Virus record (IMG/VR): IMGVR_UViG_3300020463_000014
Coordinates: 1-64,000 of that record
From: a virus
Lineage: Duplodnaviria; Caudoviricetes
Strand: one strand, 5' to 3'
DNA length: 64,000 bases
Both the position numbers and the translations under genes were made by a program. Position 1 is the stretch's first letter; every line of letters starts with the position of its first letter. This document shows, in pieces, positions 32,198 through 49,100 of this stretch. Under the pieces are notes generated by a model. The model saw only the letters and a program-made list of their open reading frames with translations. It searched no databases and had not been told where the DNA came from.

Positions 32198-32587
32198 CTA
32201 TGTTGTTACTTGAGGAGAAAGTGTTAATTTTCCTTCTAGTATTCTTTCAACTACACCTAATCCTGTATTACTATCTGTTCCTTCTAACTCAACATCATAC
32301 ACATATCTACCAGCTTTCATACGGGTTGTTTGTGCATTTGTTAATGATAGTTGTAAAATATTTTCTTGATTAAGTGGGTTAAATGCTGTAACGTTAAATA
32401 ATTCAGCTGAATCTGTAGAATTATAGCTTTTTTTAATCTTACCTCTCATGAGATAATATGATCCAAACGTACCAGCATCTGAATCCCAATTGATTAAAAG
32501 TTTTCTACTTCCATCAGGATTAAATAATTCAAGTTGGATAGTAACGTCTGATCCTTGGTCGATTGTTAAGTCTTCGTAGTGTGCCAT
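32198..32587 (-). CDS. Ig-like (BppU-N-like) fibre/baseplate adaptor protein
   Basis: Start revised to ATG 32587 (GAGGT RBS). L.IDQGSD...LSLT..QT...KAGRYVYDVE....RILEG.....P.VT pattern common in marine T4-like phages. Confidence 0.7.
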   Translation of the reverse strand: MAHYEDLTIDQGSDVTIQLELFNPDGSRKLLINWDSDAGTFGSYYLMRGKIKKSYNSTDSAELFNVTAFNPLNQENILQLSLTNAQTTRMKAGRYVYDVELEGTDSNTGLGVVERILEGKLTLSPQVTT

Positions 32588-32611
32588 ACCCACCTCTTAT
32601 CTATTTTACTG

Positions 32612-33288: not shown

Positions 33289-33533
33289 TGCAAGTCGTAA
33301 CAGTTAGATTTACAGGATCGATGGTTGAACCATCACATCACGATTGTCAAATCGTAGAAGGTTCTATGAATATGAGATATGATGTACGGAAAGATTCTTC
33401 CGCACTCGTATTATATGATGTACGAAAAGATGATATTAATCCGCCAGTATGTAAAATTATCTCTCCATTTGGTAAAGATAATACATTAGAAGCATTTTAT
33501 ATGAATGAACAATGGAATTGTAACTTAGATTAA
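33288..33533 (+). CDS. Hypothetical protein, 81 aa
   Basis: Start revised to ATG 33288 (AAAGGAG RBS; TAATG overlap with upstream stop); contains YDVRKD twice. Confidence 0.7.
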   Translation: MQVVTVRFTGSMVEPSHHDCQIVEGSMNMRYDVRKDSSALVLYDVRKDDINPPVCKIISPFGKDNTLEAFYMNEQWNCNLD

Positions 33534-33546
33534 AAAAGATAGTAAT

Positions 33547-33572
33547 AAAGAGCTCTTAGGAGCTCTTTTTTT
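33547..33572. terminator. Rho-independent terminator between convergent units
   Basis: Perfect 9-bp stem AAAGAGCTC-ttag-GAGCTCTTT followed by a T-run on plus; an A-rich flank on the other side suggests bidirectional use. Confidence 0.85.
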
Positions 33573-34131
33573 GTTTAATAAAAATATCGACTGGAACAGC
33601 CAGTCTGAGATTAGAATGATATGTTTTTACTAGATGATAAACATATCCTGGCATAATTATTACATCACCAGTTTTAGGTGCGTACTCAATAGGTTTAAAC
33701 ATTTCGGCGGTTTTACCAAAATAACCTCTATTGGCATTTGCTCTTGGATCATATGACACTAGTTCTCCACCTTTATCAATATCATCAGAAAGAACATAAA
33801 ATACTGCAGCAAATTGAGCTCCAGAATGATTATGAATATTCATTGAATATCCCTTTTGAGATCCTGTTAACCAAGAACTAAATTCGTAAGACATATCATT
33901 TAGGTCGATACTAAATACTTCTTTAAAAAATTCTGAATATTTTTCTATAGCCAAATCTTTTAACAATGGAATTTTATCTGTAAGTGAACCACTATCGTAT
34001 TCAGCCTGTGGTTTCATAATATTAGTACTAAGTAAAATTTCTTGAACTAATTCTTCACATTGGTCTAAAGTAATTTGAGTTTTGTATATTGGTGTGGACC
34101 AACACTGATTAATACCCGATTTCAACATCAT
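33556..34131 (-). CDS. Fe(II)/2OG-dependent oxygenase (TIGR02466-like)
   Basis: HNH.....AAVFYV, GGEL...DPR, P..GD.IIMPGY.YH.V and terminal R motif. Confidence 0.85.
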   Translation of the reverse strand: MMLKSGINQCWSTPIYKTQITLDQCEELVQEILLSTNIMKPQAEYDSGSLTDKIPLLKDLAIEKYSEFFKEVFSIDLNDMSYEFSSWLTGSQKGYSMNIHNHSGAQFAAVFYVLSDDIDKGGELVSYDPRANANRGYFGKTAEMFKPIEYAPKTGDVIIMPGYVYHLVKTYHSNLRLAVPVDIFIKQKKSS

Positions 34132-34513
34132 AATATCCTTTTATGTCACGAACCATACCATGAATTACCATCAATGGCCAATCTATATTGTTAAGTATAC
34201 TATCGTATATTTCCTTACTATTTTCGTATGTTTTAAAATATGGATCATTACCGGCTAAAAGCATTGGTTCATTTAACAAATCATAAAAATCTTCGTTAAA
34301 ATCTCTACTAATCCAATAAGCATAACATATTGCTACAACATAACTCTTGGCTGGATATAACCACTCATCTACTTTCTCATTAAAGTGTCGAATAGCATTT
34401 TTAATAATGACCTCTTGATTATCGTCAAAAACTATTTCTACTTTATTCAAATCATCTGTATGATTTTTATTTAATCTATGATAAACTTCTTGTTTAACTT
34501 GCCATTCTTTCAT
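34109..34513 (-). CDS. Hypothetical protein in the radical SAM cassette
   Basis: 134-aa ORF overlapping both neighbours; no recognised motif. Confidence 0.7.
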   Translation of the reverse strand: MKEWQVKQEVYHRLNKNHTDDLNKVEIVFDDNQEVIIKNAIRHFNEKVDEWLYPAKSYVVAICYAYWISRDFNEDFYDLLNEPMLLAGNDPYFKTYENSKEIYDSILNNIDWPLMVIHGMVRDIKGYYDVEIGY

Positions 34514-35402
34514 GATACCAATCCAATAATCCTCTATATCCGTTACAGCTATTATTTAAATCTTTGACATATCGATAATGCTCTGTTAAGCAGTTTCCAA
34601 AATACTTACATGAGGCGCATATAGGACTTATCATTTCTTCTTTTTCTTTGTTTGTCCAATCAATGTATTGTTTCCAAGAATCCAATTCAAGAAAGAATTC
34701 TTTATCCTCTTCATCAAATTCCAAGACACCAAATTTGCCAGAAGGAGTGATGTATATATGATCATCCGAAAATGCATTGTATCTTCCTTTCACTGATTCT
34801 ATAATTCTATCTTCATTTACAAATTCAAACTTCATAGTGTCTTTTAACTTAAGCCACTTTATAACAAAATCTTCAAAGTCTTTGTGGGTCACGTTATGTG
34901 CATTTGCTTGATTTATTGAATATGGTTTAATCTCAACAGATGTAATTGACGAGCACATATTCAACATATTAATCATTTCAGATACATCTTTTTCTAGCAC
35001 CTTTGGAGAAGCTAAAATCAAAACTGCAATAGGTACTGTACTCATTAACATATTATTAAATACAAGTTCAGACTTTTCTCTTGCTTCAAAATCATATGAG
35101 ACAGAAAGATATACATCATCATCAAAAAAGCCTGGATGCATCATAGAATAATTAGTATTGATGCTAATTTCACCTGAATAATATTTTCTTATAACATCTT
35201 TAATACCATAAAAATATGACTTTTTCATTGCACCAACTTCACCACCATATAAGTCAATATGTTCTATATCTGGCACTTGAGATAGCAACTCATCTAGTTT
35301 ATCAAATGAAATTTGTTTCTGATCACCAAGTTGCTTAGTAGATAGGTAGCAAAAATCACATCTAAAATTACAAAAATATGAAGGATTGATCGATACAATC
35401 AT
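34494..35402 (-). CDS. Radical SAM protein with C-terminal Cys cluster (SPASM/twitch-like)
   Basis: CNFRCDFC, LYGGEV, YITPSG, C-terminal CASCKYFGNC...C. Confidence 0.9.
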   Translation of the reverse strand: MIVSINPSYFCNFRCDFCYLSTKQLGDQKQISFDKLDELLSQVPDIEHIDLYGGEVGAMKKSYFYGIKDVIRKYYSGEISINTNYSMMHPGFFDDDVYLSVSYDFEAREKSELVFNNMLMSTVPIAVLILASPKVLEKDVSEMINMLNMCSSITSVEIKPYSINQANAHNVTHKDFEDFVIKWLKLKDTMKFEFVNEDRIIESVKGRYNAFSDDHIYITPSGKFGVLEFDEEDKEFFLELDSWKQYIDWTNKEKEEMISPICASCKYFGNCLTEHYRYVKDLNNSCNGYRGLLDWYHERMAS

Positions 35403-36013
35403 TACCTAGATGGAAAGGAAATATTCATTACTACTGCAAGTCTATCTTCTTCACCATAATAAGGAGTTACTTCATGCCATACATGTGCCGGAACAATAAT
35501 AATTGTATTTTTTTCAGTCTCAATAGACATTTTAGATTTAGGTCTTGTTTTTATAACCTGGTTAAATGCTGGGTCATGAAAAATTAATTTGCCTCCATCT
35601 TTATCATTATCTACACAGTCTAAATAATAAACTGCAACCATCGAAGCACCACTATGACAATGCAAACCTTTATAATCACCATTTCTCATAAAGGGTAATC
35701 TTCCGGTGGTCTGTTCCATACGTTCTAAAATTTCAGCATGTGTAATTGATTCATCATATTCATTAGCTAGTTTTAAAAATGATTTCGCAAAAAAATCATA
35801 TAAATTTTTTATTTCATTATAATTTTTAATATTATCATCGGTAAAAAGCGGAATGTGTACTCCATCATCTCCACCATCTTGATATGAAAGACCGGCCATA
35901 GCTAAATGATTTCTAAATATTGCTTGGCATACTGAATTAAGAGTACTACTTTCTTCTTCATTAATATTATGTAACTCATGTAACATTTTTATTGGAAAAA
36001 TAGTTTTTATCAT
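35402..36013 (-). CDS. Fe(II)/2OG-dependent oxygenase (TIGR02466-like)
   Basis: HCHSGASMVAVYY, GGKLIFHDP, P..VWHEV....DRLAVVMN. Confidence 0.85.
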   Translation of the reverse strand: MIKTIFPIKMLHELHNINEEESSTLNSVCQAIFRNHLAMAGLSYQDGGDDGVHIPLFTDDNIKNYNEIKNLYDFFAKSFLKLANEYDESITHAEILERMEQTTGRLPFMRNGDYKGLHCHSGASMVAVYYLDCVDNDKDGGKLIFHDPAFNQVIKTRPKSKMSIETEKNTIIIVPAHVWHEVTPYYGEEDRLAVVMNISFPSR

Positions 36014-37044
36014 GCGTATTCCCTCTCATACGGCGTCAATTGTCTATCGATGCTATTTATACTGATTATATCAGTTGCTAAAGTCTTCATATGTTTACAA
36101 TGATCTTCTACCATATTATGCTGTTTTAAATCTTTAATAGTTTTTTTACATCCATTACAAATTTCAAACATTGGACAAGTATAACACGCATTTTTTAAAC
36201 TCATTAAACTTAAATCTGTTGCAAGAGGTGTTGAAAACCCACCACTCATTTCATAATCAAAATCAATAGCCTTATCTAAATCATCACCAAATGCACCACA
36301 TGAATAGTAGTCACCTTCAGGTTGAAGTGTTCGAATGCCAGAATCACATGTTCTTGTCTGTGGACATATAGTAGATTCTCCTCTTAATCGTACCATCATC
36401 TGTTGAGTGTTATGTTCCCAATCGCTTAATCCAGCTTTCCATATTTCAACATAACGTTCATATATTTTTGATAATTGATATGGAGCAGACTGAGAACCTG
36501 ATGCCATGGCATAATTTACTTTACAGACTACATCCATTTTTTTTGCAAGTTCAACTGTCTTAATATGAGTATCTTCATTCTCTTCAACAATCACTGCTAT
36601 GAATGATGGTCTATATCCAACATGTTCTAGCATCGCATCTGAACACTTCCAAAAATCTTCTTCTGTAAACTCACTATAATCACCTTTTAATCTTCCTCCA
36701 CCATATTGAAATGATGTAGCTACACCAATTCGAGGATGGTTAAAAAGTTCTTTCCATTTCATTGGTTTCATAAGAAATGGATATAAATTTGTTGTAAGTG
36801 ATATTGTTGCCGGCAGATCATACTTATCAAGATACTCTATAATTTTCCAATAGTAATTTGGTTTCATCATTAATGGATCGCCACCATTAACAATAATTGT
36901 TTGAGTATCTGGAAAACGTTTTAAAAACTTAAATATCTTATTTAAATCAAGAGTAGCAGTATTATCTTCAAACGTAATTTTAGATGATGAACAAAATGAA
37001 CATTTAAAATTACACAATTCTGTTGGTTTGACAATTAGGTCCAT
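36010..37044 (-). CDS. Radical SAM/SPASM protein
   Basis: KPTELCNFKCSFC, NGGDPL, C.....C...GDYYSC, CYTCPMFEICNGC...C. Confidence 0.92.
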   Translation of the reverse strand: MDLIVKPTELCNFKCSFCSSSKITFEDNTATLDLNKIFKFLKRFPDTQTIIVNGGDPLMMKPNYYWKIIEYLDKYDLPATISLTTNLYPFLMKPMKWKELFNHPRIGVATSFQYGGGRLKGDYSEFTEEDFWKCSDAMLEHVGYRPSFIAVIVEENEDTHIKTVELAKKMDVVCKVNYAMASGSQSAPYQLSKIYERYVEIWKAGLSDWEHNTQQMMVRLRGESTICPQTRTCDSGIRTLQPEGDYYSCGAFGDDLDKAIDFDYEMSGGFSTPLATDLSLMSLKNACYTCPMFEICNGCKKTIKDLKQHNMVEDHCKHMKTLATDIISINSIDRQLTPYEREYA

Positions 37045-37580
37045 GGCGAATTATTAACTTTAAACCCAAAATTCATAGTGATTCTATGCATATCTGGATC
37101 TCTGAAATGTTCAACTCTATGTTCAAACTGTTTATCTTGGCTTCCTACTACTACATCGTATTTTTGAGGTAAATGAAAGGCTGTGATTCTATTATTCTGT
37201 GATATATTTCTAAACATAATTTCACCACCAGCGTCTTTATTCATATCAGTAAAATATAAAAGAAACATTATATTTGCACCTTCACAAAAATCATTATGCC
37301 AATTACACGAAGTTTGTTCAGTGCCATTCCAACAGTGATAATAAATCAAATCTTTTTTTTCTGAATATGGTCTTAAATACTGATTAAAAAGATAATCAGC
37401 AGTCATTAGCATTTTCTTTCGCATACCCAATATATAATAATTTAAAGGGAATCGATAATCTTTTCTATTACCAATACCTCTAAGCCATTTTATATTAGGA
37501 ATAGTATCTTCTAAATATTGAAACGCTTGAACGTTATTTTCTGTGTAAAATCCATCATCCATTTTCCAACCATTTTTCAC
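37035..37580 (-). CDS. Fe(II)/2OG-dependent oxygenase (prolyl-hydroxylase-like fold)
   Basis: WHND (HxD), LLYF...GGEI.F, FEHRV, RITMNF. Start may be GTG 37580 or ATG 37562. Confidence 0.8.
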   Translation of the reverse strand: MKNGWKMDDGFYTENNVQAFQYLEDTIPNIKWLRGIGNRKDYRFPLNYYILGMRKKMLMTADYLFNQYLRPYSEKKDLIYYHCWNGTEQTSCNWHNDFCEGANIMFLLYFTDMNKDAGGEIMFRNISQNNRITAFHLPQKYDVVVGSQDKQFEHRVEHFRDPDMHRITMNFGFKVNNSPWT

Positions 37581-38722
37581 AGCATTTTTACCTTTTGTCT
37601 AAATCCATATGATAGATCATCTTCACCATCGCGTTTTGGTTTAAATCCTTTTGTTTTTTTAACGTAGTTAAACGTTTCTTTAAAAACACATTCTTCCATA
37701 TCGTTATGATCACCTGGCATATCAGCTTTTACAAAGCATGTGAATGGACAGTTTTCATAATATTCACACTCAAAACAATTATATTTTTTTAAAAACTTTT
37801 CTACCATCTCTCCTGTTTCAAAGGGTGTTTCACCAGTTTTTTTATCTCGCTGATATGCTACACCACAACATCCACCGGGTGATGAACCATCAGGCTGAAT
37901 AGTTATTGAATTACCTCTTGTACACATCATTGCACCAGTTTGATTCAATGGATCATGAAACGCATCCATGTTTTCACAATCAGGATAGTTATCCACTAAG
38001 TATTTGTTAAACGCTAATAGCTCACTATCTTTAGGAATTAATTTTGCATCTGCTTTAATTAATGGTGATGGCATATAAGCATCAAAATCAACTGGAAAGT
38101 TTTTATACAAATAATCAAAAGTGCTTTTATCGTTACTCTTTATAATTGTTTGTATATTTTGGCTAGTAGTAACAATTGAAACGTTTCTAATATAATCTTT
38201 AAAAGTCTCAACATTTTCTAAGAATATTTCTAGTTGACCTTTATTAAATCTACCTCTTGGATCATAAGAAGTTGAAAGCTTTATATCATGCTTATTACAA
38301 AAGTCCATAACTTTATCTGAATTTTTTTTATCAAACATAAAATTAGTAAGATAATTAAAATAAATTCTTTTGTTGCCGATGTTAATCTTGGATCTAACTA
38401 AATTCATAAATTCTTCATATACATCTAAAAAGCCTTTTTCAATCCATAGATCTTCAAATAATTCTCCACCTAATAGATGTAATTTATAGTCTTTTGATCT
38501 TGGCGAATTGTTAATAAATTTAGCAACAGTATCGCTTTTTGCTAAAATTTCTTCTCGAGTAGCTCCAACCATTGAGTTATGATCTTGCGGACAGAACACA
38601 CATTTTAAATTACAATGTTCAAAAAATATTATAACAAGCTCACTTGATCGAGTAATCTTGCTTCCTAAAATTTTGTATATATCAAAATCAAGTGGAGCTG
38701 GATTAATAGGTGCTACAGACAT
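37577..38722 (-). CDS. Radical SAM protein with SPASM-like C-terminus
   Basis: CNLKCVFC, LLGGELF, C.....I.PDG....CC, CFECEYYENCPFTC...C. Confidence 0.9.
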   Translation of the reverse strand: MSVAPINPAPLDFDIYKILGSKITRSSELVIIFFEHCNLKCVFCPQDHNSMVGATREEILAKSDTVAKFINNSPRSKDYKLHLLGGELFEDLWIEKGFLDVYEEFMNLVRSKINIGNKRIYFNYLTNFMFDKKNSDKVMDFCNKHDIKLSTSYDPRGRFNKGQLEIFLENVETFKDYIRNVSIVTTSQNIQTIIKSNDKSTFDYLYKNFPVDFDAYMPSPLIKADAKLIPKDSELLAFNKYLVDNYPDCENMDAFHDPLNQTGAMMCTRGNSITIQPDGSSPGGCCGVAYQRDKKTGETPFETGEMVEKFLKKYNCFECEYYENCPFTCFVKADMPGDHNDMEECVFKETFNYVKKTKGFKPKRDGEDDLSYGFRQKVKML

Positions 38723-40383
38723 TCTTTACTTACCTCTGACATAATTATATGTCTATTTTTTTCTATAAATTTATTTATAGTATTTGCTCTAAACTCTTGA
38801 TTTAAAACTTTAATGCTTTTTGGTTGAGAATTTGGATTAAATATATCTCTTATTTCAGAATGTATATCATCCCATCTATCTAATTTACTTATAACTTCAT
38901 ATGCTTTTTTAGTAAAGACTGACGGTGATAGACTATTTTCAAGCATAGGATAAAAGTGCTGCAGTAAATAATTTCCAGCACTATTCATAAACCACATTTC
39001 ATGCATTTCTTCAGTTGTAAACGAAAAGCATGATGATATTGTTTTAAAATACGATTTTTTATTTTTATACAAATTATTCCAACTATCTATCCCTTGTTCA
39101 TCTGCAATATCAGTGTAAACTTCAACGGTTCGAATATCATATTTAATTTTATATTCCTGAGAATTAAGCGCTGAATCTGGAAGAAACATATAATCATGTC
39201 TGTAAGAACCAAACGATTTAAAATTCCAGATATATTCCATTTCATTATAAAAGTCATCTATTGTAGAACCTGGCATTGCAAGGATCATTTCTAAATTAGG
39301 TATTGGAAACCCGTGCTTTGAACATTGCTCATTAATGTGTTTACTTAATTCTAATTTATCTTCTGTATTTAAATCAACTCTTTCAGCTATTTTCATTGCA
39401 ATGTCAGAACTGCTTTGAATAGACACTGATGGAACTATCGATATATTGGCCATCTCACTCCACATATCTTTTCCATTTTTCATATTTGGAGAAGTATAAT
39501 TTGTTCCAACGATTTCAAAATACTTATCAATTAATTTTTTTCTTCTATTTAAATCCTTAGATTTCATGGTAGAAATATCAGTTAAATTAAAACCATTTGT
39601 CCAAGCGTATTCGAATATTTCAAAGTCTCTTTCAAAAAAGGCTCCAAAGTTTGCATCATTTAAATAAGCAGATCTATAACCGGCTTTTAGCATAGCATTG
39701 ATATCACGTTTCACTATGCCCAAGGATTTCTTATAAATCTTTGTATTAATACCTCCACCCCATTCGCAGAACACACACTTATAAGGACAACCTCTTGTCG
39801 TCTCTAAAACAATAAACGGTTCCATTTTATTATTACGAGCGTATTTAAGTAATTTTGTAAGATATTCTAAATGATCTTCGTATACTGAATAATCTTCTTT
39901 TGACAAATCATGTATTAATTTTACATCAGATCTTAATTCCCATGGAATACTTGTTGGATCTATTCTGTTTTCAATAAACTGATCGATAAGCTCAGCCATA
40001 AATGGCTCACCTGGTTTAGTAGGTCTACAAATTAAATCGTACTGAGGACGTGATGTTAATAGTTCTGGTTCATTGGTTCCAATATGTGGACCACCTAAAA
40101 CTAGTATTTTTTCTGGATATTTATTTTTAATTTTATTAGAAATTTCATCACATATCATATAGTTCCAAGTATAAGAAGAAAACATAATTATATCTGCTTC
40201 GATTATATCATCTATTACTTCATCATAAGATTTATAGCTATTCCATTTATATGGTGATTCTAACCACTTTACTTTTTTACTATATTTGCCAAAACGAGAA
40301 TAGTAACTTTGCATTAATAAAAATGTAAAGTTATTTGCTAGTGACCAGTCAGCGTGAGGAGGATTAATAAATGCTATAATCAT
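38713..40383 (-). CDS. B12-binding-domain radical SAM protein (class B methyltransferase-like)
   Basis: N-terminal DII.FSSYTWN...KIK..YP....VLGGPH cobalamin-binding-type domain; ETTRGCPYKCVFCEWG; DANFG; SIQS. Confidence 0.88.
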   Translation of the reverse strand: MIIAFINPPHADWSLANNFTFLLMQSYYSRFGKYSKKVKWLESPYKWNSYKSYDEVIDDIIEADIIMFSSYTWNYMICDEISNKIKNKYPEKILVLGGPHIGTNEPELLTSRPQYDLICRPTKPGEPFMAELIDQFIENRIDPTSIPWELRSDVKLIHDLSKEDYSVYEDHLEYLTKLLKYARNNKMEPFIVLETTRGCPYKCVFCEWGGGINTKIYKKSLGIVKRDINAMLKAGYRSAYLNDANFGAFFERDFEIFEYAWTNGFNLTDISTMKSKDLNRRKKLIDKYFEIVGTNYTSPNMKNGKDMWSEMANISIVPSVSIQSSSDIAMKIAERVDLNTEDKLELSKHINEQCSKHGFPIPNLEMILAMPGSTIDDFYNEMEYIWNFKSFGSYRHDYMFLPDSALNSQEYKIKYDIRTVEVYTDIADEQGIDSWNNLYKNKKSYFKTISSCFSFTTEEMHEMWFMNSAGNYLLQHFYPMLENSLSPSVFTKKAYEVISKLDRWDDIHSEIRDIFNPNSQPKSIKVLNQEFRANTINKFIEKNRHIIMSEVSKECL

Positions 40384-40416
40384 ATTTCATTCTATACATT
40401 ACAAATTAAAAAATAT

Positions 40417-41547
40417 TTAAACTGTTACATATTTAGCAATAGTTGTTTTATCAGAAACAGAATTAGCATCCAGCAGTGAATGAATTAAATAATGATTTAC
40501 AGTTTCAAGTTCTAATGCAAAGAATTTTTCAGGTTCTTTATCATCTGATGATTCAATTAAAATAAGCTTATCTAATAGTTCATCTGTTAATTCAGTATTA
40601 ATTGCTGGTAAGAATTCTAATATGCTATCATCTCTTAAAGTAAAATCAGACCATTGACTTTCTATAATAGCTACAAACTCTTTAATAGTATTAAGATCTG
40701 AATCAGAAATATTTTCGAATATTACATTATCACTACTAGAAGCGCCACTTAGATATTTTATAGACCACATATCGTCTTTAATAAACAGTTGAGCAAATTT
40801 AGAAGTATCTGTAAAAATGTCATTAATATTATTTAATGTGTAAGTTTTGTCTAAATTTAATTTATCAGCAAAAGATTTAGTTAAGAAATGTTGGAAAAAT
40901 ATTTCCTTTAATTCGTAAAGATATTGTTCAAACACTTTTTTCAGCAAAGGTCTGACTACGCCTTTTAACTCTGCTTTTGAAGATTTGTCATTAAGATAAT
41001 TTGCTAGTAGATGTTCAACACTTATTGTGCTTTTATATTTTGCCATAAATGCTTTTTTCTTGGCAGCAGAAGGAGCTTTAACACTATCATAAATGGTATT
41101 GAAATTTTCTACTTTTAAAATTTCACCAGATCCTAATTTTGCATTATTACTTGAAAACCTGCCTCTAAAAAATGTATTAAATTTAAAAGCATGGGCTTTT
41201 ACTAATGATTCTACTGAATCAACTTTCGGAGTTTTTAAAATAAATTTATACCAAGTAGACATAATAAATTGAAATGCTGCACTATCACAATAAACAACGA
41301 TTCTTTTATTTGTAGAATCACATTTGGCAGCTAATTCATCAAAAAGAGTTGTAGCATCTTTAAACGTTTTATCTTTTCCTAGAATATCATTCCATTCAAG
41401 TCCATATGCAATGAGTTGACCAGATAATATTTTTTGAAGATCTTCTAAAAGATTAAAACCGTTACTTTGCGATACAACAATACGATCAAAATTTGGATCG
41501 ATGATATTATCTGTTGTTACATAAATCTTTTTAAACAGATGTATCAT
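40417..41547 (-). CDS. Hypothetical protein in the radical SAM cassette
   Basis: 376-aa ORF with ATGA overlap to the upstream gene; no confident motif. Confidence 0.75.
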   Translation of the reverse strand: MIHLFKKIYVTTDNIIDPNFDRIVVSQSNGFNLLEDLQKILSGQLIAYGLEWNDILGKDKTFKDATTLFDELAAKCDSTNKRIVVYCDSAAFQFIMSTWYKFILKTPKVDSVESLVKAHAFKFNTFFRGRFSSNNAKLGSGEILKVENFNTIYDSVKAPSAAKKKAFMAKYKSTISVEHLLANYLNDKSSKAELKGVVRPLLKKVFEQYLYELKEIFFQHFLTKSFADKLNLDKTYTLNNINDIFTDTSKFAQLFIKDDMWSIKYLSGASSSDNVIFENISDSDLNTIKEFVAIIESQWSDFTLRDDSILEFLPAINTELTDELLDKLILIESSDDKEPEKFFALELETVNHYLIHSLLDANSVSDKTTIAKYVTV

Positions 41548-42191
41548 AACTGTTCTCCTGTGGCGATAGCGCTTGTTATTAAAAACATTGGGTTATTAAC
41601 ATTCGCCCAATAACTAAATAGATTATTTCCTTTAAACATATACTCATTAAAGTATGATTTATAATATGTTTTATGATGTTCAATTACATTGGCATAAAAT
41701 AGATAAAAGCTTTCATATTTAAGTAAATTTACAAAATTTATTCCAGTTAGATCTTTTGTGTCATCTTCTGGAAATGATTTAACATAGTCTTTTAATTCAT
41801 CGCATTCAACTGTGTACAAATTATAAAGCGAAAGTGAATCTAATTTCTTAGCCCAAGTAGTAAGTATTTCAACGTTATCATCAATAAAATCTTTTTCTAT
41901 TAATTCACTAATACCTTTCATCTGTAATAATAAACTAATTACTCTTTCTTCAAGGATAGGAATACTTATAATAAAATTAGCTAAAAGATATTCTCTAGTA
42001 AGATCATCAAAATCTTTTTGATCAGTAAAACCAATATTACATGGCAATTCCAGATTACTGAGATATGTTAATAGCTTTGTTCCCTGCAATTGTGAATTTT
42101 CATAATCAACTATATAAAAAGTTTGATCATCTTCAAAATACAATTTCAAATCTTCAATACTAAATGGTGCAGTAACATCAATAACTTTCAT
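41544..42191 (-). CDS. Hypothetical acidic protein coupled to the putative precursor gene
   Basis: Start revised to 42191 (MKVIDV; ATGA overlap with the precursor stop; GAGGA RBS inside the RGRR codons). Confidence 0.75.
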   Translation of the reverse strand: MKVIDVTAPFSIEDLKLYFEDDQTFYIVDYENSQLQGTKLLTYLSNLELPCNIGFTDQKDFDDLTREYLLANFIISIPILEERVISLLLQMKGISELIEKDFIDDNVEILTTWAKKLDSLSLYNLYTVECDELKDYVKSFPEDDTKDLTGINFVNLLKYESFYLFYANVIEHHKTYYKSYFNEYMFKGNNLFSYWANVNNPMFLITSAIATGEQL

Positions 42192-42751
42192 CTTCTTCCT
42201 CTCGAGCCATGGCAACTGCTATGACAACTTGCATGACAAATATTAATATTTACAGTAACGGTATTGGAAACTAAATTATTAAAACGTGTCTGTAAGTCTG
42301 TAAATTTAGCTTCAAGACCAGAAGCACTAATTTGAGTACCAGCAGTTAAAGTAACTCCAGCTGCAGATAACGTTTGTGCATAACTACTGTTTAAATAAGC
42401 TTTTGCTGTTTGATTAAAAATTTGTCCAGGATTAGGATATGTTCCTGTATTACCACCAGGACCTGTTACTGTTCGAATTGCATTTAAATTTCTAATTTGA
42501 CTATACGCAGCGGTTTCATTTTCAATTGCAGTATTGATAACAGAAGCAGTGATTGGATTTTGATTTATATCAGCTCCAGTAATTCCAATGCTTCTACCAG
42601 CAGTTGTTCCACCAAAATATGATGTAGCAAATCCACTAAACGGAACTGAATTGGTACCCCAAACAATACCAGAGTTTGCACTTGCCGGCGCAAAATCCGC
42701 AAATCTATCTATTATATTCTGTGCGTTAATTGGACTTGTTAATGTAGCCAT
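42188..42751 (-). CDS. Putative radical-SAM substrate: virion-like protein with C-terminal (Cys-His-Xaa-Ser)3-RGRR tail
   Basis: 187 aa; Thr/Ala/Gly/Asn-rich body containing no Cys or His until the terminal CHASCHSSCHGSRGRR; GAGGA RBS; dedicated late promoter. Confidence 0.75.
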   Translation of the reverse strand: MATLTSPINAQNIIDRFADFAPASANSGIVWGTNSVPFSGFATSYFGGTTAGRSIGITGADINQNPITASVINTAIENETAAYSQIRNLNAIRTVTGPGGNTGTYPNPGQIFNQTAKAYLNSSYAQTLSAAGVTLTAGTQISASGLEAKFTDLQTRFNNLVSNTVTVNINICHASCHSSCHGSRGRR

Positions 42752-42777
42752 TTCATTCCTCTTTTGTTATATACGTG

Positions 42778-42785
42778 TATTTATA
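42778..42785 (-). promoter_or_regulatory. T4-type late promoter driving the putative precursor and downstream enzymes
   Basis: Exact TATAAATA 27 nt upstream of ATG 42751, overlapping the upstream stop codon. Confidence 0.8.
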
Positions 42786-43800
42786 CATGTTTTGCGAGTT
42801 CCATCATTAAACTTTTTGGTGCACCACAAATATCTCCATCCCATCCTAATTGATGACAATCACCTCCACAAAATCTAGATACAGGGCAAGATAAACAATT
42901 AGGATTACGCATTTTTTCTTCTAATATAGTACGAATTCTTTTTGGACTTTTTAACAATGTATCAATTGAATCATCTAAACTTCCAAAAGCTTGTTCAGGC
43001 GCACTATTTGGGCAGCCTGCAATAGTTCCATCTCCATTTATGGTAAATAGTTTTTGTTCACAATCTCTACAAAATGTTCCACACGTAGTCATAGTCTTTT
43101 CAAATTTGGCATATACATTTTCTAAAAAGTCATTTTCAAACCAATCCCTTGCTCCGTGCTTTTCACTTTGCATGTGCATTTTTAAAAAATATTCATCAAG
43201 TTCTTTATTGCTTGGAAATATTTCTGATGCTTCTCGGGCACTACCATTATTAGTTAGTCTTTCCAGTGAAACTTCTTGTACACCAAGTCGCCGGCACCAT
43301 CTTAATAATACTATAGGATCTTTTGCAAGTGTATCTTTTGTAAGACTAATAAACAAACGAATAGTAACACCGTTTGCTAAAAGTGTTTTAACATTTTTAT
43401 GCCAAAGATTATATTGGTTTTTATTTTCAAATCGAATCTTACGATCCCACGATGTGCCAAGTCTATTTCCAAGAGGACCTTTAATAAAATCCATATGTTG
43501 ATCTTTTAATTTGAAAACTAAATTAGTTGTAGCACCCCACGACATTTGATTCCATAAACCATCACATGCATCATATACCTTTCGCATTTGGCCAACCGGT
43601 ACAAGAAACGGTTCACCACCATGAAATTCCATATGTATAGAATCTTGTGTTGCAGGTTTTTCTTTTCTAAATCTATGAATCCAGTCAACTAGCTTATCAG
43701 TATTCCAATAAATCTTTTGACCGCTTCTTCCACTGGTAAAACAGTGTGCACAATTAAGCTGACATGTTTCTGTTGTTTTGAGATACATCAGCCAGTTCAT
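42781..43800 (-). CDS. Radical SAM/SPASM peptide-maturase-like protein
   Basis: KTTETCQLNCAHC, FHGGEPFL, CRDC....TINGDG.IAGCPN, CLSCPVSRFCGGDC...C (full SPASM-type Cys pattern). Confidence 0.93.
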   Translation of the reverse strand: MNWLMYLKTTETCQLNCAHCFTSGRSGQKIYWNTDKLVDWIHRFRKEKPATQDSIHMEFHGGEPFLVPVGQMRKVYDACDGLWNQMSWGATTNLVFKLKDQHMDFIKGPLGNRLGTSWDRKIRFENKNQYNLWHKNVKTLLANGVTIRLFISLTKDTLAKDPIVLLRWCRRLGVQEVSLERLTNNGSAREASEIFPSNKELDEYFLKMHMQSEKHGARDWFENDFLENVYAKFEKTMTTCGTFCRDCEQKLFTINGDGTIAGCPNSAPEQAFGSLDDSIDTLLKSPKRIRTILEEKMRNPNCLSCPVSRFCGGDCHQLGWDGDICGAPKSLMMELAKHV

Positions 43801-44281
43801 TATTAATTTTATCCTCTGTATAATTTTCTAAACCAAAGCTTAACGTCAATGCTTCATCTTTATTTAATGCTTGATGAGGTGTATAAGCTGGTATATGTAT
43901 ATATTCTCCTTGGATAATAGTCACTGGCTTATTATCAATTATTAAAGATTTAGATCCTTCACAGCAATATATAACAACATCATCTGGATCAGTATGCATA
44001 TCGAAAGAATAAGATCCAGCCGCTGCAAAAAATAAATGACATGTTACATGCTGTTCATGTTTCCAATCAGTTTTTATTTTCCAACAATATTCATATATTG
44101 TTGAATTAAAGTTTTCCATACGTTCGATTTTTATAGAATGGTTTTGTTTTTGCACTTTGCAAAAATCACTGAAACTAGTAATTAGCTGTTCACGACCCTG
44201 TTCATCTATAGCATAAACCATATTTTGTTCATACATATGACTCGCAGTAAGTGCAGATATGAGTTGAGATTTATTAATCAT
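43754..44281 (-). CDS. JmjC/cupin-4 (ROX/YcfD-like) oxygenase
   Basis: SFDMHTDPDDV....CEGSK and G.YIHIPAYTPHQA...LTLSFG resemble the HxD...H cupin of ribosomal oxygenases. Confidence 0.8.
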   Translation of the reverse strand: MINKSQLISALTASHMYEQNMVYAIDEQGREQLITSFSDFCKVQKQNHSIKIERMENFNSTIYEYCWKIKTDWKHEQHVTCHLFFAAAGSYSFDMHTDPDDVVIYCCEGSKSLIIDNKPVTIIQGEYIHIPAYTPHQALNKDEALTLSFGLENYTEDKINNELADVSQNNRNMSA

Positions 44282-44287
44282 TATTTA

Positions 44288-44316
44288 ATTATATACTATT
44301 TTTAATCAAATGTAAA
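44288..44316 (-). promoter_or_regulatory. Sigma70-type promoter, probably giving a leaderless mRNA
   Basis: Minus strand TTTACA-N17-TATAAT; the A of ATG 44281 lies 7 nt after the -10 box and there is no RBS. Confidence 0.7.
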
Positions 44317-44323
44317 TAGTTAT

Positions 44324-45883
44324 TTACACTTTAAGGATACATTCTATCAATTTTTCTTCATCTACAGTAGACGATTCTAAAGCTACACCTACCATCATAG
44401 CTCCATTAAATTCTTTACTTGCTCGGCCATTATGGTGTGTATATACTGGATCACCTTTATGAACTCCACCAATAACCCTTACTGGAACTCTTCCCTTAAG
44501 ACCTAAAGCTTGACCAGGAGCGTCTGCATTCATTAAATAAGCAGGTTGAGCTGAAATTACGCCGACTGGAATTCCGCTTGATGTGCAAGGAGTAGTTTCT
44601 TCAGTTTTATTAAATGACGCCATCATTACTGTTCCAACTGGATGCTCTTCACTTGTAGTATATTTTTCTGCAAGGTCAGCATAATTTGCAGTTTGAGCAT
44701 TACCAGCAACTGTACCGGCAGATAATGTTTGTGTTGATGGATTATACATTAAATGCCCATTATCAGTATCAATATAAGGTCTTTGATAACCTGTACCATT
44801 ATTATCGCTAAATAATACTTGGTAATTTACATCGTCATTTTTTTCATCAACTTTTACAAAATCGGCCTCGCCTCCAGAAACTGTACAAGCACCAGTATTT
44901 GCCATTGTAACATGACCAGATAATGCTGCAGTAGTAAAACCTGAGCCATTACCAATTAGAATTTGAGTGTCTGCTACTATAATATCTGAAGGATCTGATG
45001 CTGAAGAACTATTTCCAACTTTTACTGAATTTGCTGGCATATTAGCAAGCTTATCATTAGTCACAGCATCATCAGTTATTTGACCTGTTATTACTTGTCC
45101 TGCCTGAATACCTCCAGATGCTTGGCGACCAATTACAGTATTAGTTCCTGCTTGTACAGAGCCAATATCACCAGCAGCTGATCTACCAATAACTGAATGA
45201 TCTGGTATTGCTAAATCTCCTGGATCACCACTAGTACCTGCCTGGCGAGTTTTTATTGTATATCCTGCCATATTAGCAAGCTTAGCATTAGTTACTTGAT
45301 CATCTGATATCATATCAGTTTGAATTTGCACTTCTTCAACTGTGCCCGCTGTTGTTTTGCCAAGAACTCTATTTGCAGTTACAATGTCTTGCATTTTATC
45401 ATAGGTCACAACATCAGGCTGAATTGTGACCACGCCGGCGTTTGTCATAAGAACATCTTGAGATAAAGCGGTAGATGTAAAACCAGTTCCATTACCAATT
45501 AAAATTTGTTCGTTAGTAACTGCCTTATTTGATGATGCTCCAGTAGTTCCTGCATCTCTTACTTTAACAGTGTTTGCTGGCATATCTTCTAATTTAAGAC
45601 CAGATGCTTCTTGAGTTAAACCGTGACCACCTGCTACTGAAAATGTTCCACTTGAATCTCCAGTAAGGTTTCCACCAACGCTAGTCTTTAAAATTCCATT
45701 TCCTGCATTATAGTTTCTTCGCACTGCTTTACTAAAATTTAAGGCTGTTACTATACTTGAATCATGGCCAGCATAGTCACTACTAAGATTATCTAGATCA
45801 CCGATCTGAGCAGCAATAGTATTAGATTTTACTCTAAAAGTGTTAATTGTATCACTTAAATTTATAACTGTCTGTCTAGCCAT
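44324..45883 (-). CDS. Tail fibre-like protein with C-terminal chaperone/peptidase-like domain
   Basis: Internal repeats (VT..KLANM.AN.VKV; ILIGNG.GFT..ALS); C-terminal YADLAEKY...GVIS..PAYLMN...L.GRVPVRV.G motif typical of fibre C-termini. Confidence 0.75.
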   Translation of the reverse strand: MARQTVINLSDTINTFRVKSNTIAAQIGDLDNLSSDYAGHDSSIVTALNFSKAVRRNYNAGNGILKTSVGGNLTGDSSGTFSVAGGHGLTQEASGLKLEDMPANTVKVRDAGTTGASSNKAVTNEQILIGNGTGFTSTALSQDVLMTNAGVVTIQPDVVTYDKMQDIVTANRVLGKTTAGTVEEVQIQTDMISDDQVTNAKLANMAGYTIKTRQAGTSGDPGDLAIPDHSVIGRSAAGDIGSVQAGTNTVIGRQASGGIQAGQVITGQITDDAVTNDKLANMPANSVKVGNSSSASDPSDIIVADTQILIGNGSGFTTAALSGHVTMANTGACTVSGGEADFVKVDEKNDDVNYQVLFSDNNGTGYQRPYIDTDNGHLMYNPSTQTLSAGTVAGNAQTANYADLAEKYTTSEEHPVGTVMMASFNKTEETTPCTSSGIPVGVISAQPAYLMNADAPGQALGLKGRVPVRVIGGVHKGDPVYTHHNGRASKEFNGAMMVGVALESSTVDEEKLIECILKV

Positions 45884-46115
45884 TTGATTCTACCATTTTC
45901 TTTGTTATTTGCGCCAGCATTTGTTTTATTTCGCTTACATCATTTTTCAACTCGGCAAGTTCTTTTTCTTTTTCAGCATCTAATTTTTTCTTCATTCTAG
46001 CTCTATTAATAGCATCACTATTAATATTTAATATAGCACCACTATTTAAATCTTTAACTAAATTGGGATGGCCCTGAATTTTTATACTGTTTATTTTACT
46101 TTTCAATTTAAACAC
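45876..46115 (-). CDS. Small conserved-type T4-like phage protein following VrlC
   Basis: KIQGHPNLVKD..SGAILN plus coiled-coil L..LKNDVSEIK.ML. Confidence 0.7.
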   Translation of the reverse strand: MFKLKSKINSIKIQGHPNLVKDLNSGAILNINSDAINRARMKKKLDAEKEKELAELKNDVSEIKQMLAQITKKMVESNG

Positions 46116-49100
46116 CTAATGCTATAACTCTTAAATCTTTAATTGTCGGAACTTTTGAACTATTATTAGCAAAAAGTACTATTTTTACTTGGAACGTAGT
46201 AAATGCTGGTATAGTTCCATCAGTTCCACCAATTAAATAATTGTATTCTTTATATGAATATGGATCATCTGATATTGAAACTGGCGCTTCAAGTGTGGCA
46301 AGTGTCCAATTAATATCTGTCAATATAGTATCTTCTGTACCTGTTTTAAAATATACATCAAATAAAGCACCAGTTGGTCTATTTGCTGCTAACATTACTT
46401 TTAAACCAACTGCAGTGTTTGTTAATGTTACAGGTTTTGTAATATGTTTAGCAAGAGCACTTCCACTAAATGGTGTTGTTTCTGCAGCATAATCAAAGAC
46501 CACATTTTGGCCAGAAGTAGCTACATCAATAGGTCTATCAATTTCATTTTTTGTAAGTACTAATGAAGCTCTTTGTAAATCTATTACTGGAGAAACAAAT
46601 GAGCTTGTTGTACTTAATGATATTCTTAAAGATCCAGTATTAACTCCACCTAATCCACCAATACCTGTTGCAGTATCTTCTTTTACAGCATTCGCCACCA
46701 TTATTGAATTTTCAAAATGATTTTTCTGATTAAGCGCAATATCAGTATATCCTCCAGCCGGTGCAATATATGGCGTTTCTAATGCAACATTAGAATATCC
46801 ACTATAAATGCTGGCTTTTGGAATTACACTTGTTAAAGGTGGATTAAGCATTTGAACAATAGGATATAAAGTATTTCCTTGAATATTTTTAGTTGCAAAT
46901 ACTGCACTACCGCCACCTTGAGCAGCTGAAGTAGCTGATCCAGCTGCTAATGTAATTTTATATCCTGTTGGATCTATATGCGTTATTGTATGAGTAACAT
47001 TAAGTTGAACGGCTGTAACACCACCAACTGCTGTTGCTCCAGTAATAGCAACTTTATCTCCAACAAATAAATTATGATTCTTATGGAAAACTCTTATTGA
47101 AGTTGGAGCTGAAGTATTTGTTAAAATTGGACTAGGACCTAATAGTGCAAGAGGTAAATCTGCTGTATTAAGTTGAGCAACTGCTTGTATATTAGTAGCA
47201 AAATCAGCTCTATATAATGTAAATTTCATATCTTGTTCTTGACAAGCTTCCCAGGTCGTACTGTTTTGTGATTTAAAGAAAGATCCTAAGAATGGTTGTT
47301 TTGTAATTCTTCTTGCAGTAGAACCTAATTCAAAATCACCCATAAATGATGTCCACAATAAATAATCAGTATTGTCGGTTATGCATACAATTGCATATTC
47401 AGTTCTACCAGAAAGATATATCGGCTCATCAAATTCAAATGTTGTAGGAAGAGATGCATCATCAGAAATACTAACATTTCCAGGTGATAAGTATTTTCTA
47501 GATCCTGGTACAATTGTATTAGACGCTGGATAGCCATTTATAAGAGGTCTTAATTCAATCCATACTGGTAATGTAGCATGTTTTGTTTTAAAGTATAAGT
47601 CAACTTTACAAGTAAATATACCTTCATCTTGAGGAACATAAAACGATTGCGCTAAAGGATCACGTTGATCATTCCTATTTGAATCATTGTCCCCTATAAA
47701 ATCCTCTCTTGGCTGCAATCTAGATCCAGTAACTACTCTACTACTACTTGAAACTCTAGAGCCAACTACAGTAAGATGTCGAGTGGACAATATTTCTTCT
47801 TGAAAAGTTTCTAGAGCACCAGAAGCATTATATGATGTTACTGCAGATGATCCTGGAACACCTCCATTTTTAGGAGTTTCTGTAACATCAAGTAACATAA
47901 AATCAGCTTGACCAGTTCTAAATTTAGTTGTACTATTATTAGGAATAAAAAATGATCCTGAGATTCCTCCTAGTGCATCACTAAGTAAAGCACCAGACCC
48001 ATCTGGGTGAGTTGTAAGATTATTTGGTGATTCAAATTCAACTCTTGCTGAATTAATTCTATCAAAGTTTCCAGTACTTCTAACAAAATCATTCATTTTA
48101 AAGTCATTAAAATATGCAAAATGATATGCGTTTGGTCTTAATCCAATAGCTTCAAAACTAACTTTTCTACTTCTCATAAATGGTATAACTGCTACATCAA
48201 TAATTCTATCGCCTAATGATGTTCTAATAGTTTCAGAAGCTACTACTCTATTTACAATTGAACTTGTGGTTTGATCAAATCCCCAAACTGTTAACCTTCC
48301 ACTGGTCTGAGAGAATGCTCGACTAGATGATGTTGTAGTTCCTGCTACTGTATTTTCATCACCTACTTCTAATCCTTCAATATCATTACCTAACCAACCC
48401 CATTCGGATTGATCAAAGAGAAGTGCTTGGTCAAGATTTAATCTTGTTCCACCATCTATTACTTTTGCTGCTGCTCTTTGATCCACTTTCCATTCATCTG
48501 ATTGAGGAGATAGATTTATTGACCCACTATAAGTAGAAATCATATATGGATTAACATTTTCTGTACGAGATACAACTGTTTGACTAATATATTCAGCATG
48601 TCCATATTTAATATAAACGTTATCGCCCATTAAAACAGTATCTGGAGTATCTACACCACTAACAGTCCTTGAAGAAGAAGTTGCAGCATCATAAATAAGT
48701 CCTACATTGTATTCAGTAAATGGTGGATGTAAAGTCATAGTTTTTGGATTAACTGAAGCTCTATATTCTACTGAATTAGTATTTGAATGAAATAAATCTT
48801 TAAAGTTGTCTACAAGAAATCCAGATTTAGTTCTATTATTTCCACTACCGTCAACTACTTCAAAAGCGTTTGTATCAAGTTCTAATAAACTAAGTGATAC
48901 TGTTTCTTCAAGTAGATCTACTCGCTTATCGATTTTACCAATATCTTTCATGGTATAACCTTTATTTTCAATAAACTTAACAACCATGTCGGAAGCAGAA
49001 ATTGTACCACCGTTAAGTGATGATCTATATAGTTCTAAAGATTTGGGTGGCTGAGATGGTAATACTGGATTATCGGCTGGAGTTCCTTCTAAATTTTCTA

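Follow-up and report, generated by a model that had tools for sequence, protein, structure and literature searches.

Extensive maturation by radical S-adenosylmethionine (rSAM) enzymes is well known in small secreted peptides, and few examples of it are proteins. A ribosomal product matured by rSAM enzymes is, as a kind of system, known already. Here we describe a phage locus with such enzymes in a 64,000-nucleotide stretch of DNA (positions 1 to 64,000 of the IMG/VR virus record IMGVR_UViG_3300020463_000014), hereafter the window. Its gene prec encodes a protein of 187 amino acids (aa) that ends in three Cys-His-x-x repeats followed by Arg-x-Arg-Arg (R-x-R-R), and lies in a block of 13 same-strand genes, the module, that also encodes rSAM enzymes and oxygenases. 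With moderate confidence, we propose that the prec tail is modified stepwise by the module enzymes, remains on its body and has its role with a fibre or adsorption structure. New in this system are the Cys-His repeat with its RxRR end, an enzyme set of this size, a location among phage tail genes and an occurrence shared with predatory bacteria.

A precedent for an rSAM-matured protein, rather than a peptide, is HxsA of the HXS defence. According to the published account (PMC13128918), this 214-aa protein carries five HxS repeats, one of them altered by +8 Da, is matured by two rSAM enzymes, HxsB and HxsC, together with HxsD, and acts in the periplasm, where it keeps phage DNA from entering. 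The prec system resembles HXS, as described there, in its target protein of ~200 aa with a folded domain and short, basic, His/Ser-rich repeats, in the combination of more than one rSAM enzyme with a small helper protein, and in its biology at the interface of phage and envelope. Repeats without Cys, a peptidoglycan-binding domain, N-terminal processing and the role of a bacterial defence effector are reported for HxsA only. In contrast, the prec repeat lies at the extreme C-terminus, pairs Cys with His, has a period of four residues with invariant Cys instead of tandem three-residue HxS units, ends in R-x-R-R, is accompanied by four to five rSAM enzymes plus oxygenases, and is phage-encoded.

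NCBIfam models were run against 10 module proteins and six other targets. The HxsB model (TIGR03978) gave 34.8 bits for rSAM1 and 23.6 bits for rSAM3 against a cut-off of 370, and the HxsC model (TIGR03977) gave 27.7 bits for rSAM4 and 26.3 and 17.7 bits for orthologues from a Dysosmobacter segnis locus (L031) against a cut-off of 267.9. Neither an HxsA nor an HxsD model was among the matches listed for these proteins, which numbered up to 25 for each. No Pfam or NCBIfam model matched any of the target types tested, and the model scans placed prec itself in no Pfam or NCBIfam family.

The CXXX-repeat system (TIGR04115) shares with prec a Cys at every fourth residue of a target encoded beside an rSAM/SPASM enzyme. 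Its model reached 37.8 bits for rSAM1, over residues 8-66 only, against a cut-off of 350; the names of these models mention neither paired His nor an R-x-R-R end, and neither a long folded body nor a set of several enzymes. The Pfam 38.1 model PF27846 (tSAM_targ_Cxxx_rpt) was found on 25% of the neighbouring ESM Atlas cluster members (score 0.79), and this model for Cxxx-repeat targets may touch part of the prec family. The rSAM enzymes of triceptides and cyclophanes (GrrM/OscB, FxsB, AmcB, YhhB) have in common with our system the His-x-Ser triplet that occurs in most repeats, and His is described as a possible cyclophane donor (PMC11499958). The cyclophane-synthase models (TIGR04261, TIGR04269, NF041718, NF041707) gave 20.3-28.4 bits against cut-offs of 310-445. 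The invariant Cys is not known to have a role in triceptides, and Ser is replaced here in 8-18% of the sequences. A preliminary description of the window had suggested kinship with HxsA and the triceptides. This kinship comes down to an analogy: the HxsB, HxsC and cyclophane-synthase models stayed at 20-35 bits against cut-offs of 268-445, and Ser is not invariant. The claim of a new core type, made in the same description, agrees with our scans, as no curated precursor model matches the tail protein.

The model for anaerobic sulfatase-maturating enzymes (anSME; TIGR03942) was the first- or second-best full-length match for rSAM1 (42.6 bits), rSAM4 (38.7 bits) and the L031 orthologue, with matches of 38.7-46.2 bits against a cut-off of 349.45. 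Like anSME, the module enzymes lack a recognition domain and, as proposed here, would act on a protein substrate. The anSME site is Cys-x-Pro/Ala-x-Arg, which the last prec repeat, C-H-[GSNTA]-[SAN]-R, resembles; we treat this likeness as a lead only. Unlike the anSME target, prec lacks a sulfatase domain, and Gly or Ser mostly takes the place of Pro/Ala. The DynA model gave 45.7 and 52.1 bits against a cut-off of 450. In QhpC/QhpD, which concern the gamma subunit of quinohemoprotein amine dehydrogenase, and in the methanogen protein thioethers (PMC13692751), rSAM/SPASM enzymes install Cys thioether crosslinks in proteins that stay in a larger assembly. The QhpD model reached 26.5 bits here (cut-off 453), and the prec tail is without Asp or Glu acceptors. 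The general definition of a ribosomally made peptide with post-translational modifications (RiPP), a ribosomal precursor with a conserved core beside dedicated modifying enzymes, does apply. Judged by curated models, the module lies outside the Hxs, CXXX-repeat and triceptide families.

The Cys-His tail and its carriers

The open reading frame (ORF) of prec ends in ...NINICHASCHSSCHGSRGRR. Its last 16 residues, CHASCHSSCHGSRGRR, contain every Cys (three) and every His (three) of the protein at a strict four-residue spacing, and the core pattern is C-H-x-x three times, then R-x-R-R, then the stop codon. The translation thus confirmed two statements of the preliminary description, that all Cys and His lie in the last 16 residues with a four-residue period, and that the motif occupies positions 42188-42238, which are the stop codon and the last 16 codons of prec. 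The (Cys-His-x-x)x3 DNA pattern occurred once in the window versus zero times in 100 dinucleotide-preserving shuffles, and the tail repeat exceeds chance.

A word-index search (E<=1e-3) yielded 405 homologues of prec, all from marine or other metagenomes, on contigs of up to 206 kb. Among the best 120 of these, 118 had an intact tail (C-H-x-x-C-H-x-x-C-H-x-x-R-x-R-R), down to ~50% identity, and the two others each had one His changed. A profile search with prec against 1.84 billion cluster representatives (50% identity) gave 608 matches at E<=1e-3. The exact tail was present in 138 of the best 150, and the other 12 representatives were mostly near-variants or fragments. Conservation in homologues had been named beforehand as the test that the motif should pass, and in both sets the motif is kept. 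In an alignment of 39 members of the prec family, the tail columns without variation were those of the Cys (three), the His (three) and three Arg; identity per column averaged 60% over the whole alignment.

We also compared 382 distinct motif-bearing sequences, which were chosen by the motif and therefore have Cys, His and Arg at 100% by construction. The fourth position was Ser in 92%, 82% and 91% of them for repeats 1-3, respectively, and otherwise N, A, Q, D, K or R. Because of these replacements, the invariant residues are Cys, His and three Arg, and not His-x-Ser as such. Of the CHxS core proposed earlier, Cys and His stand and Ser does not. Most of these sequences (279 of 382) had no Cys outside the tail, and four repeat units were present in three.

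After removal of the last 20 residues, 142 bodies fell into 13 groups without mutual blastp links (1e-4). The largest group had 87 members, including prec of the window, and the second had 37 members, which are short forms of 124-140 aa in tandem pairs. On this comparison, the tail appears older than the body. One protein from the profile search (P0155; 453 aa) has a Gly-rich N-terminal region of 272 aa fused to body and tail, and other prec relatives of 258-319 aa have insertions or N-terminal extensions. A dedicated search for longer homologues found none at E<=1e-3, which is weak evidence; the profile search did yield longer forms. Neither tblastn of the whole prec protein against 50,697 phage records nor megablast of 10 kb of the window against phage records gave a match.

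A scan with the back-translated pattern found 47 loci in one-genome-per-species contigs and at least 119 IMG/VR stretches, of which 80 loci were analysed. Eight of the 47 genome matches (L004, L005, L006, L008, L009, L026, L034, L037) were simple repeats in GC-rich DNA that code for Cys-His/Arg, and were excluded from the counts; such matches in GC-rich bacterial DNA call for caution when this motif is mined by regular expressions. In 37 of the remaining 39 real genome loci the ORF was whole, and in two it was truncated where the locus ends. In the viral set, 79 of the 80 loci had an in-frame ORF ending in the motif. According to blastp with the window proteins, at least one rSAM orthologue lay within the examined locus DNA in 68 of the 80 viral loci and in 34 of the 39 real genome loci. 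The pattern search and inspection of neighbourhoods that the preliminary description had called for placed the motif beside rSAM orthologues. The gene order fibre, cupin, rSAM1, prec, unk223, unk376, rSAM3, (B12), rSAM4, rSAM5, unk134, oxygenase was recurrent in the viral loci.

The 17 loci without an rSAM orthologue in the examined DNA were either short or had a tandem short form directly after a large fibre gene. When the contigs of five such viral loci were searched over their whole length, four had an rSAM4 orthologue (58-63% identity) elsewhere, and the fifth was a fragment with an estimated completeness of 22%. These counts do not match the adverse outcome named beforehand, a motif equally often without rSAM neighbours, and four of the five apparent lacks had a distant rSAM gene. 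The short tandem forms (L066, L091, L099, L104, L118, L123, L127, L130, L132, L137, L139, L141, L142, L020, L030, L047) directly follow a fibre gene of ~1800-2000 aa where its ORF is complete.

Homologues of rSAM1 with 41-51% identity were found by tblastn in 15 jumbo-phage records, with Atu_ph07, Phosso, RSL2, RSF1, FLC phages, SURPRISE13, RsoM3USA and pPa_SNUABM_DT01 as carriers. The jumbo-phage counterparts of prec were reached only via rSAM1. Gp170 of Atu_ph07 (296 aa) ends in ...CHSSCHASCHNSRSRR and gp068 of RSL2 (186 aa) in ...CHSSCHTSCHGSRGRR, and their bodies are unrelated to prec by blast. In both phages, the tail gene directly follows the rSAM1 homologue, with a cupin gene before and further rSAM genes after it.

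The majority of the real genome matches were Bdellovibrionota, on contigs of up to 2.8 Mb. Three Bdellovibrionota genomes had the full module amid apparent housekeeping genes (N-termini judged by eye), and inspection of their ORF listings by eye recognised no phage structural gene around it. Two of these genomes (G002, G004) encode, on the flanks of the module, proteins that end in a Peptidase_S74 domain, an intramolecular chaperone of phage fibres and spikes. These proteins are encoded at L065:4597-5643(+), L065:6252-7262(-) and L062:15765-17006(-); the two at L065 have a pilin N-terminal methylation motif and look like pilin/fibre hybrids. The third Bdellovibrionota genome has a 2355-aa ORF inside the module. 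The distribution is patchy: an rSAM4 orthologue (E<=1e-60) was present in 10 of 301 Bdellovibrionota genomes, and four of the ten were query seeds.

Dysosmobacter, Bacilli, Flavobacteriaceae and Vicingus assemblies were single carriers. In Dysosmobacter segnis, the ORF at L031:3907-4266(-) is still open where the locus ends; its length of at least 119 aa includes 15 Cys and 14 His. It has a long run of CHxS-type repeats with the same RGRR end, lies beside rSAM3, rSAM4 and unk223 orthologues, and is a Firmicutes version with many more repeats. The Campylobacter phages CP220 and CPt10 are described as having 11-12 rSAM genes, including an exchangeable block of five (PMC2853527). Neither phage was among the tblastn matches of rSAM1 or rSAM4, and their rSAM genes may represent a different phage rSAM module.

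Gene content and setting of the module

The module spans 33556..44281 and contains, besides prec, four diverged rSAM paralogues, one B12-binding rSAM, four cupin or 2-oxoglutarate (2OG) oxygenases and three unknown proteins. This set of five rSAM enzymes and four oxygenases, and its spread to jumbo phages and Bdellovibrionota, go beyond what the preliminary description had observed. The features are listed in order of transcription below.

Features of the prec locus in the window, in order of transcription
Feature	Positions	Strand	Description	Support or occurrence
Fibre-like protein (fib519)	44324..45883	(-)	519 aa, directly upstream of the module	phrog_19602 tail fiber, DUF5907
cupin	43754..44281	(-)	Cupin_2 / JmjC_2-like, presumed metal-dependent oxygenase, first module gene	32.4 and 30.5 bits; 42/80 viral loci
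rSAM1	42781..43800	(-)	Radical-SAM/SPASM, 339 aa, with CxxxCxxC at residue 13 and lacking an N-terminal recognition domain	60/80 viral loci
TATAAATA	42778..42785	(-)	27 nt upstream of the prec ATG, overlaps the end of the rSAM1 gene	
prec	42188..42751	(-)	Globular ~170-aa body and tail	Only the last 26 residues match phrog_35144
C-terminal tail CHASCHSSCHGSRGRR and TGA stop codon	42188..42238	(-)	Last 16 codons of prec; presumed modification site	
unk223	41544..42191	(-)	215 aa from the ATG at 42191, conserved partner	phrog_20767; 55/80 viral, 22/39 genome loci
unk376	40417..41547	(-)	Conserved protein	No family match; orthologues in 22/80 viral loci
B12-binding rSAM	38713..40383	(-)	Methyltransferase-like, optional member	KedN5-type 80 bits, below the cut-off of 700; 7/80 viral, 5/39 genome loci
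rSAM3	37577..38722	(-)	Radical-SAM/SPASM, 381 aa	42/80 viral loci
'cup'	37035..37580	(-)	Small protein; cupin-like label by eye, unconfirmed	phrog_19592; blastp homologues in other modules
rSAM4	36010..37044	(-)	Radical-SAM/SPASM, 344 aa, best-conserved member	53-62% identity in jumbo phages
2OG-Fe(II) oxygenase	35402..36013	(-)	2OG-FeII_Oxy_5, phrog_81	Family match
rSAM5	34494..35402	(-)	Radical-SAM, 302 aa, four-Cys C-terminal (twitch-like) motif	Orthologues with 42-68% identity
unk134	34109..34513	(-)	Small conserved protein	phrog_20737
Second 2OG-Fe(II) oxygenase	33556..34131	(-)	2OG-FeII_Oxy_5, phrog_81, last gene of the block	Family match

Pairwise identity among rSAM1, rSAM3, rSAM4 and rSAM5 was only 24-31%, yet for each of them marine phages, jumbo phages and Bdellovibrionota alike encode orthologues with ~40-62% identity; rSAM4 reached 54-58% in five Bdellovibrionota genomes. 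This combination of low mutual identity and conserved orthologues fits four non-redundant steps. In all four, CxxxCxxC lies at residues 11-37, i.e., the proteins begin at the rSAM motif. The SPASM cysteine set is complete in three of them and twitch-like in rSAM5, and none has a fused recognition domain. Full-length alignments were obtained with the DynA, anaerobic sulfatase maturase and PapB models, which begin at the rSAM core, and the alignments to HxsB, DarE, CbpB and QhpD start at model positions 66-98. Hence, the architecture is like that of DynA, PapB and the sulfatase maturase, and unlike that of maturases bearing a RiPP recognition element (RRE).

None of the 13 module genes matched a peptidase or transporter family in the family scans, and three of them match no known family. 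The unk223 start codon shares bases with the stop codon of prec in the sequence ATGA, and unk223 homologues align from that Met. Conserved polar residues are scarce in the unk223 alignment, and unk223 may be a binding protein rather than an enzyme. Proteins with unk376-like N-termini were seen by eye beside the motif gene in G002 and G004. A sequence search of structures found no solved relative of unk376. Comparison of unk376, unk134, rSAM1, rSAM4, cupin and oxyB with solved structures returned only generic cupin and MoaA-core matches. The closest solved relatives of the cupin, over the motif region only, were quercetin dioxygenase cupins. Its assignment as a His/Arg hydroxylase of the ribosomal-oxygenase type was considered and set aside as an unconfirmed lead, given that JmjC_2 has no stretch that passes alone and that the solved relatives are generic cupins.

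AlphaFold2 predicted prec, from the 39-sequence alignment, as a compact alpha/beta body with a predicted local distance difference test (pLDDT) of 84.6 and a predicted template modelling score of 0.78. The first Cys is placed at the end of the last beta-strand, from which the tail protrudes with a pLDDT of 60 falling to 49. Comparison of the model with the PDB gave no Foldseek match at E<=1e-3 and a best VIA-align Z of 3.9. The body, which in the preliminary description read like a phage fibre or virion protein, is thus predicted as a compact alpha/beta domain without a PDB match. In BFVD, the model matched only uncharacterised phage proteins, including Atu_ph07 gp170, which suggests that bodies unrelated by blast share a fold, at least partly. 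The unk223 model (pLDDT 92.5) had no PDB match by Foldseek and no usable ESM Atlas match. The absence of PDB matches for prec and unk223 indicates neither a new fold nor a function. A complex prediction of unk223 with prec scored 0.01 versus a mark of 0.32, was run without controls, and speaks neither for nor against binding.

The window, part of a 76-kb virus record, derives from a marine T4-like myovirus, because its baseplate protein is nearest to that of Phage C48C1 (40% identity), followed by pelagimyophage HTVC008M (33%). The module lies between baseplate-wedge and fibre genes, with baseplate-wedge genes beyond fib519. A homologue of fib519 was present in 40 of the 80 viral loci, and its C-terminal domain recurs beside the module. 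The sequence TATAAATA, which we take to be the core of a T4-type late promoter, occurs in 14 copies in the window, all on the coding (-) strand and most of them 19-66 nt upstream of gene starts. Besides the copy before prec (42778), sites include 5698, 9211, 16972, 31936, 32612, 36054, 38772, 52872 and 56475, and rSAM3, a 2OG oxygenase and structural genes are among the genes preceded by it. The total is not above chance (14 versus 16 expected); the restriction to one strand and the positions of the copies are in keeping with T4-type late promoters. A scan of the window for sigma-70 promoters and terminators performed no better than on shuffles.

The structural region also contains giant ORFs at 18369..31895 (-), 11835..16943 (-) and 46108..51381 (-), of 4508, 1702 and 1757 aa, respectively, and, at 32198..32593, a 131-aa ORF with a match to a tail-fibre assembly family. 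In two marine studies, RNA-library contigs (X15, X16; X17) include relatives of 33500-46200 that are 95-99% alike and cover the tail-coding end. DNA carry-over is possible in these libraries, so that this cover is not evidence of transcription and uncovered stretches are uninformative.

Proposed maturation and alternative explanations

We propose that prec would be the dedicated substrate of a multi-enzyme maturation module, presenting a flexible 16-residue tail on a folded body of ~170 aa. The four rSAM enzymes, an optional B12 rSAM methyltransferase and several cupin or 2OG oxygenases would rework this tail successively. Hydrogen abstraction at Cys, His or neighbouring side chains may crosslink the tail or oxidise its Cys, and hydroxylation or methylation may come next. 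Candidate products are Cys thioethers and His crosslinks. In the last C-H-x-x-R unit, which resembles the sulfatase site, Cys might be oxidised; the cupins and 2OG enzymes might act as hydroxylases, and C-methylation is a candidate where the B12 enzyme is present. The end product would be a modified protein with the tail still attached to its body, and no peptide would be released. Made late in infection alongside tail and fibre proteins, prec may work with the fibre or adsorption structure, and in some Bdellovibrionota the same module may serve fibre-like proteins.

Several results point to the tail as the substrate. It is invariant on changing bodies and keeps fixed company with four non-redundant rSAM groups. 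Moreover, prec is translationally coupled to unk223, and the rSAM enzymes start at CxxxCxxC without a fused recognition domain. That the product would stay on the protein is suggested by the absence of a peptidase or exporter family from the module, by the body, a conserved fold that tolerates insertions and fusions, and by late-gene signals amid structural genes.

Other observations weigh against this proposal. What marks the tail as a putative substrate is its co-occurrence with the enzymes, and an rSAM gene was absent from the examined locus DNA in 12 of the 80 viral and five of the 39 genome loci. The short tandem forms adjoin a fibre gene, kilobases away from the enzymes on the same contig. 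No RRE domain or known leader-binding protein was identified in the module, and neither unk223 nor unk376 has a recognisable fold or family. The predicted prec body has no fibre-like features. Furthermore, rSAM enzymes are oxygen-sensitive, which is odd for phages of surface-ocean hosts. Association with the virion is something we infer, and gp170 is not named in the main text of the Atu_ph07 paper (PMC6102473).

Cys and His at positions i, i+4 and i+8 would also be expected of a plain metal site. The tail, by itself or within an oligomer, could coordinate Fe, Zn, Cu or Ni on a fibre-associated protein, and the enzymes would then act elsewhere, e.g. on the fibre. Cys and His are classic ligands, their spacing would bring them onto one helix face, and His motifs of the T4 fibre tip bind iron. 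The short tandem forms beside fibre genes and away from the enzymes would fit as well. We nevertheless consider a plain metal site unlikely: it does not account for four diverged sets of rSAM orthologues that occur with the motif both in phages and on bacterial chromosomes, it leaves the invariance of R-x-R-R unexplained, the tail has no ordered structure in the AlphaFold model, and no curated metal-site family matched.

In a classical RiPP, the body of 170 aa would be a long leader, and the modified 16-residue core would be cleaved off and released as a bioactive peptide. A repeat-bearing C-terminal core beside rSAM/SPASM enzymes is the hallmark layout of RiPPs, the nearest models are only RiPP-type maturases, and long folded leaders exist in the NHLP and Nif11 types. 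However, the family scans of the 13 genes gave neither a peptidase nor an exporter, the conserved and confidently predicted fold of the body accepts insertions and fusions like a functional domain, and the gene lies amid late structural genes. Release of a peptide seems quite improbable to us.

Even less probable, in our judgement, is that prec is the scaffold of a peptide-derived cofactor comparable to pyrroloquinoline quinone (PQQ) or mycofactocin, whose tail residues would be crosslinked, oxidised and excised as a redox-active or metal-binding compound. The combination of several rSAM enzymes with several oxygenases resembles cofactor pathways, the weak matches include the models for mycofactocin and quinohemoprotein maturases, and the target site of MftA is C-terminal too. 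All such models stayed far below their cut-offs, though, and neither a peptidase or excision enzyme nor an obvious user enzyme was seen in the module, whose phage structural setting is ill-suited to a metabolic cofactor.

Finally, a role of the CxxxCxxxC tail as an iron-sulfur or electron-transfer helper that reduces or supplies the rSAM enzymes, with the fibre as their true substrate, would fit three closely spaced Cys near enzymes that need reduction and clusters and, presumably, a host reductant, but is very improbable, because the spacing and the paired His are unlike ferredoxin-type motifs, no iron-sulfur family matched, and a late-promoter-like site of its own and tandem copies better fit a stoichiometric product.

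Significance for phages and predatory bacteria

We found no published description of the tail or of a role for the module, and the accounts of FLC6, S13 and RP12/RP31, in the parts available to us, list the enzyme genes only. Phages keep a pathway of up to nine enzymes beside their fibre genes, and an invariant 16-residue tail accompanies it. At its broadest, the interpretation would be that unrelated phages (marine T4-like, phiKZ-like and Atu_ph07-like jumbo phages) and some Bdellovibrionota share a pathway of four to five rSAM enzymes and oxygenases that builds a new crosslinked, metal- or redox-active prosthetic structure on the (Cys-His-x-x)x3-RxRR tail. Displayed on fibres, this structure would act at or in the envelope of prey or host, in recognition, penetration or DNA escort, as an attacker-side counterpart of the HxS-repeat effector that blocks DNA entry. 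We offer this broad interpretation as speculation that is more likely to be wrong than right by a wide measure.

If stepwise maturation of an attached tail is correct, prec would be the first rSAM-modified component tied to a phage adsorption apparatus. Jumbo-phage genes for radical SAM enzymes, Fe-S oxidoreductases, cupins and 2OG oxygenases, so far merely listed, would gain a function. For enzymology, the module provides four new families of rSAM enzymes whose putative substrate is short, defined and readily synthesised. Moreover, phages and predatory bacteria would be linked by common equipment for attack on the envelope.

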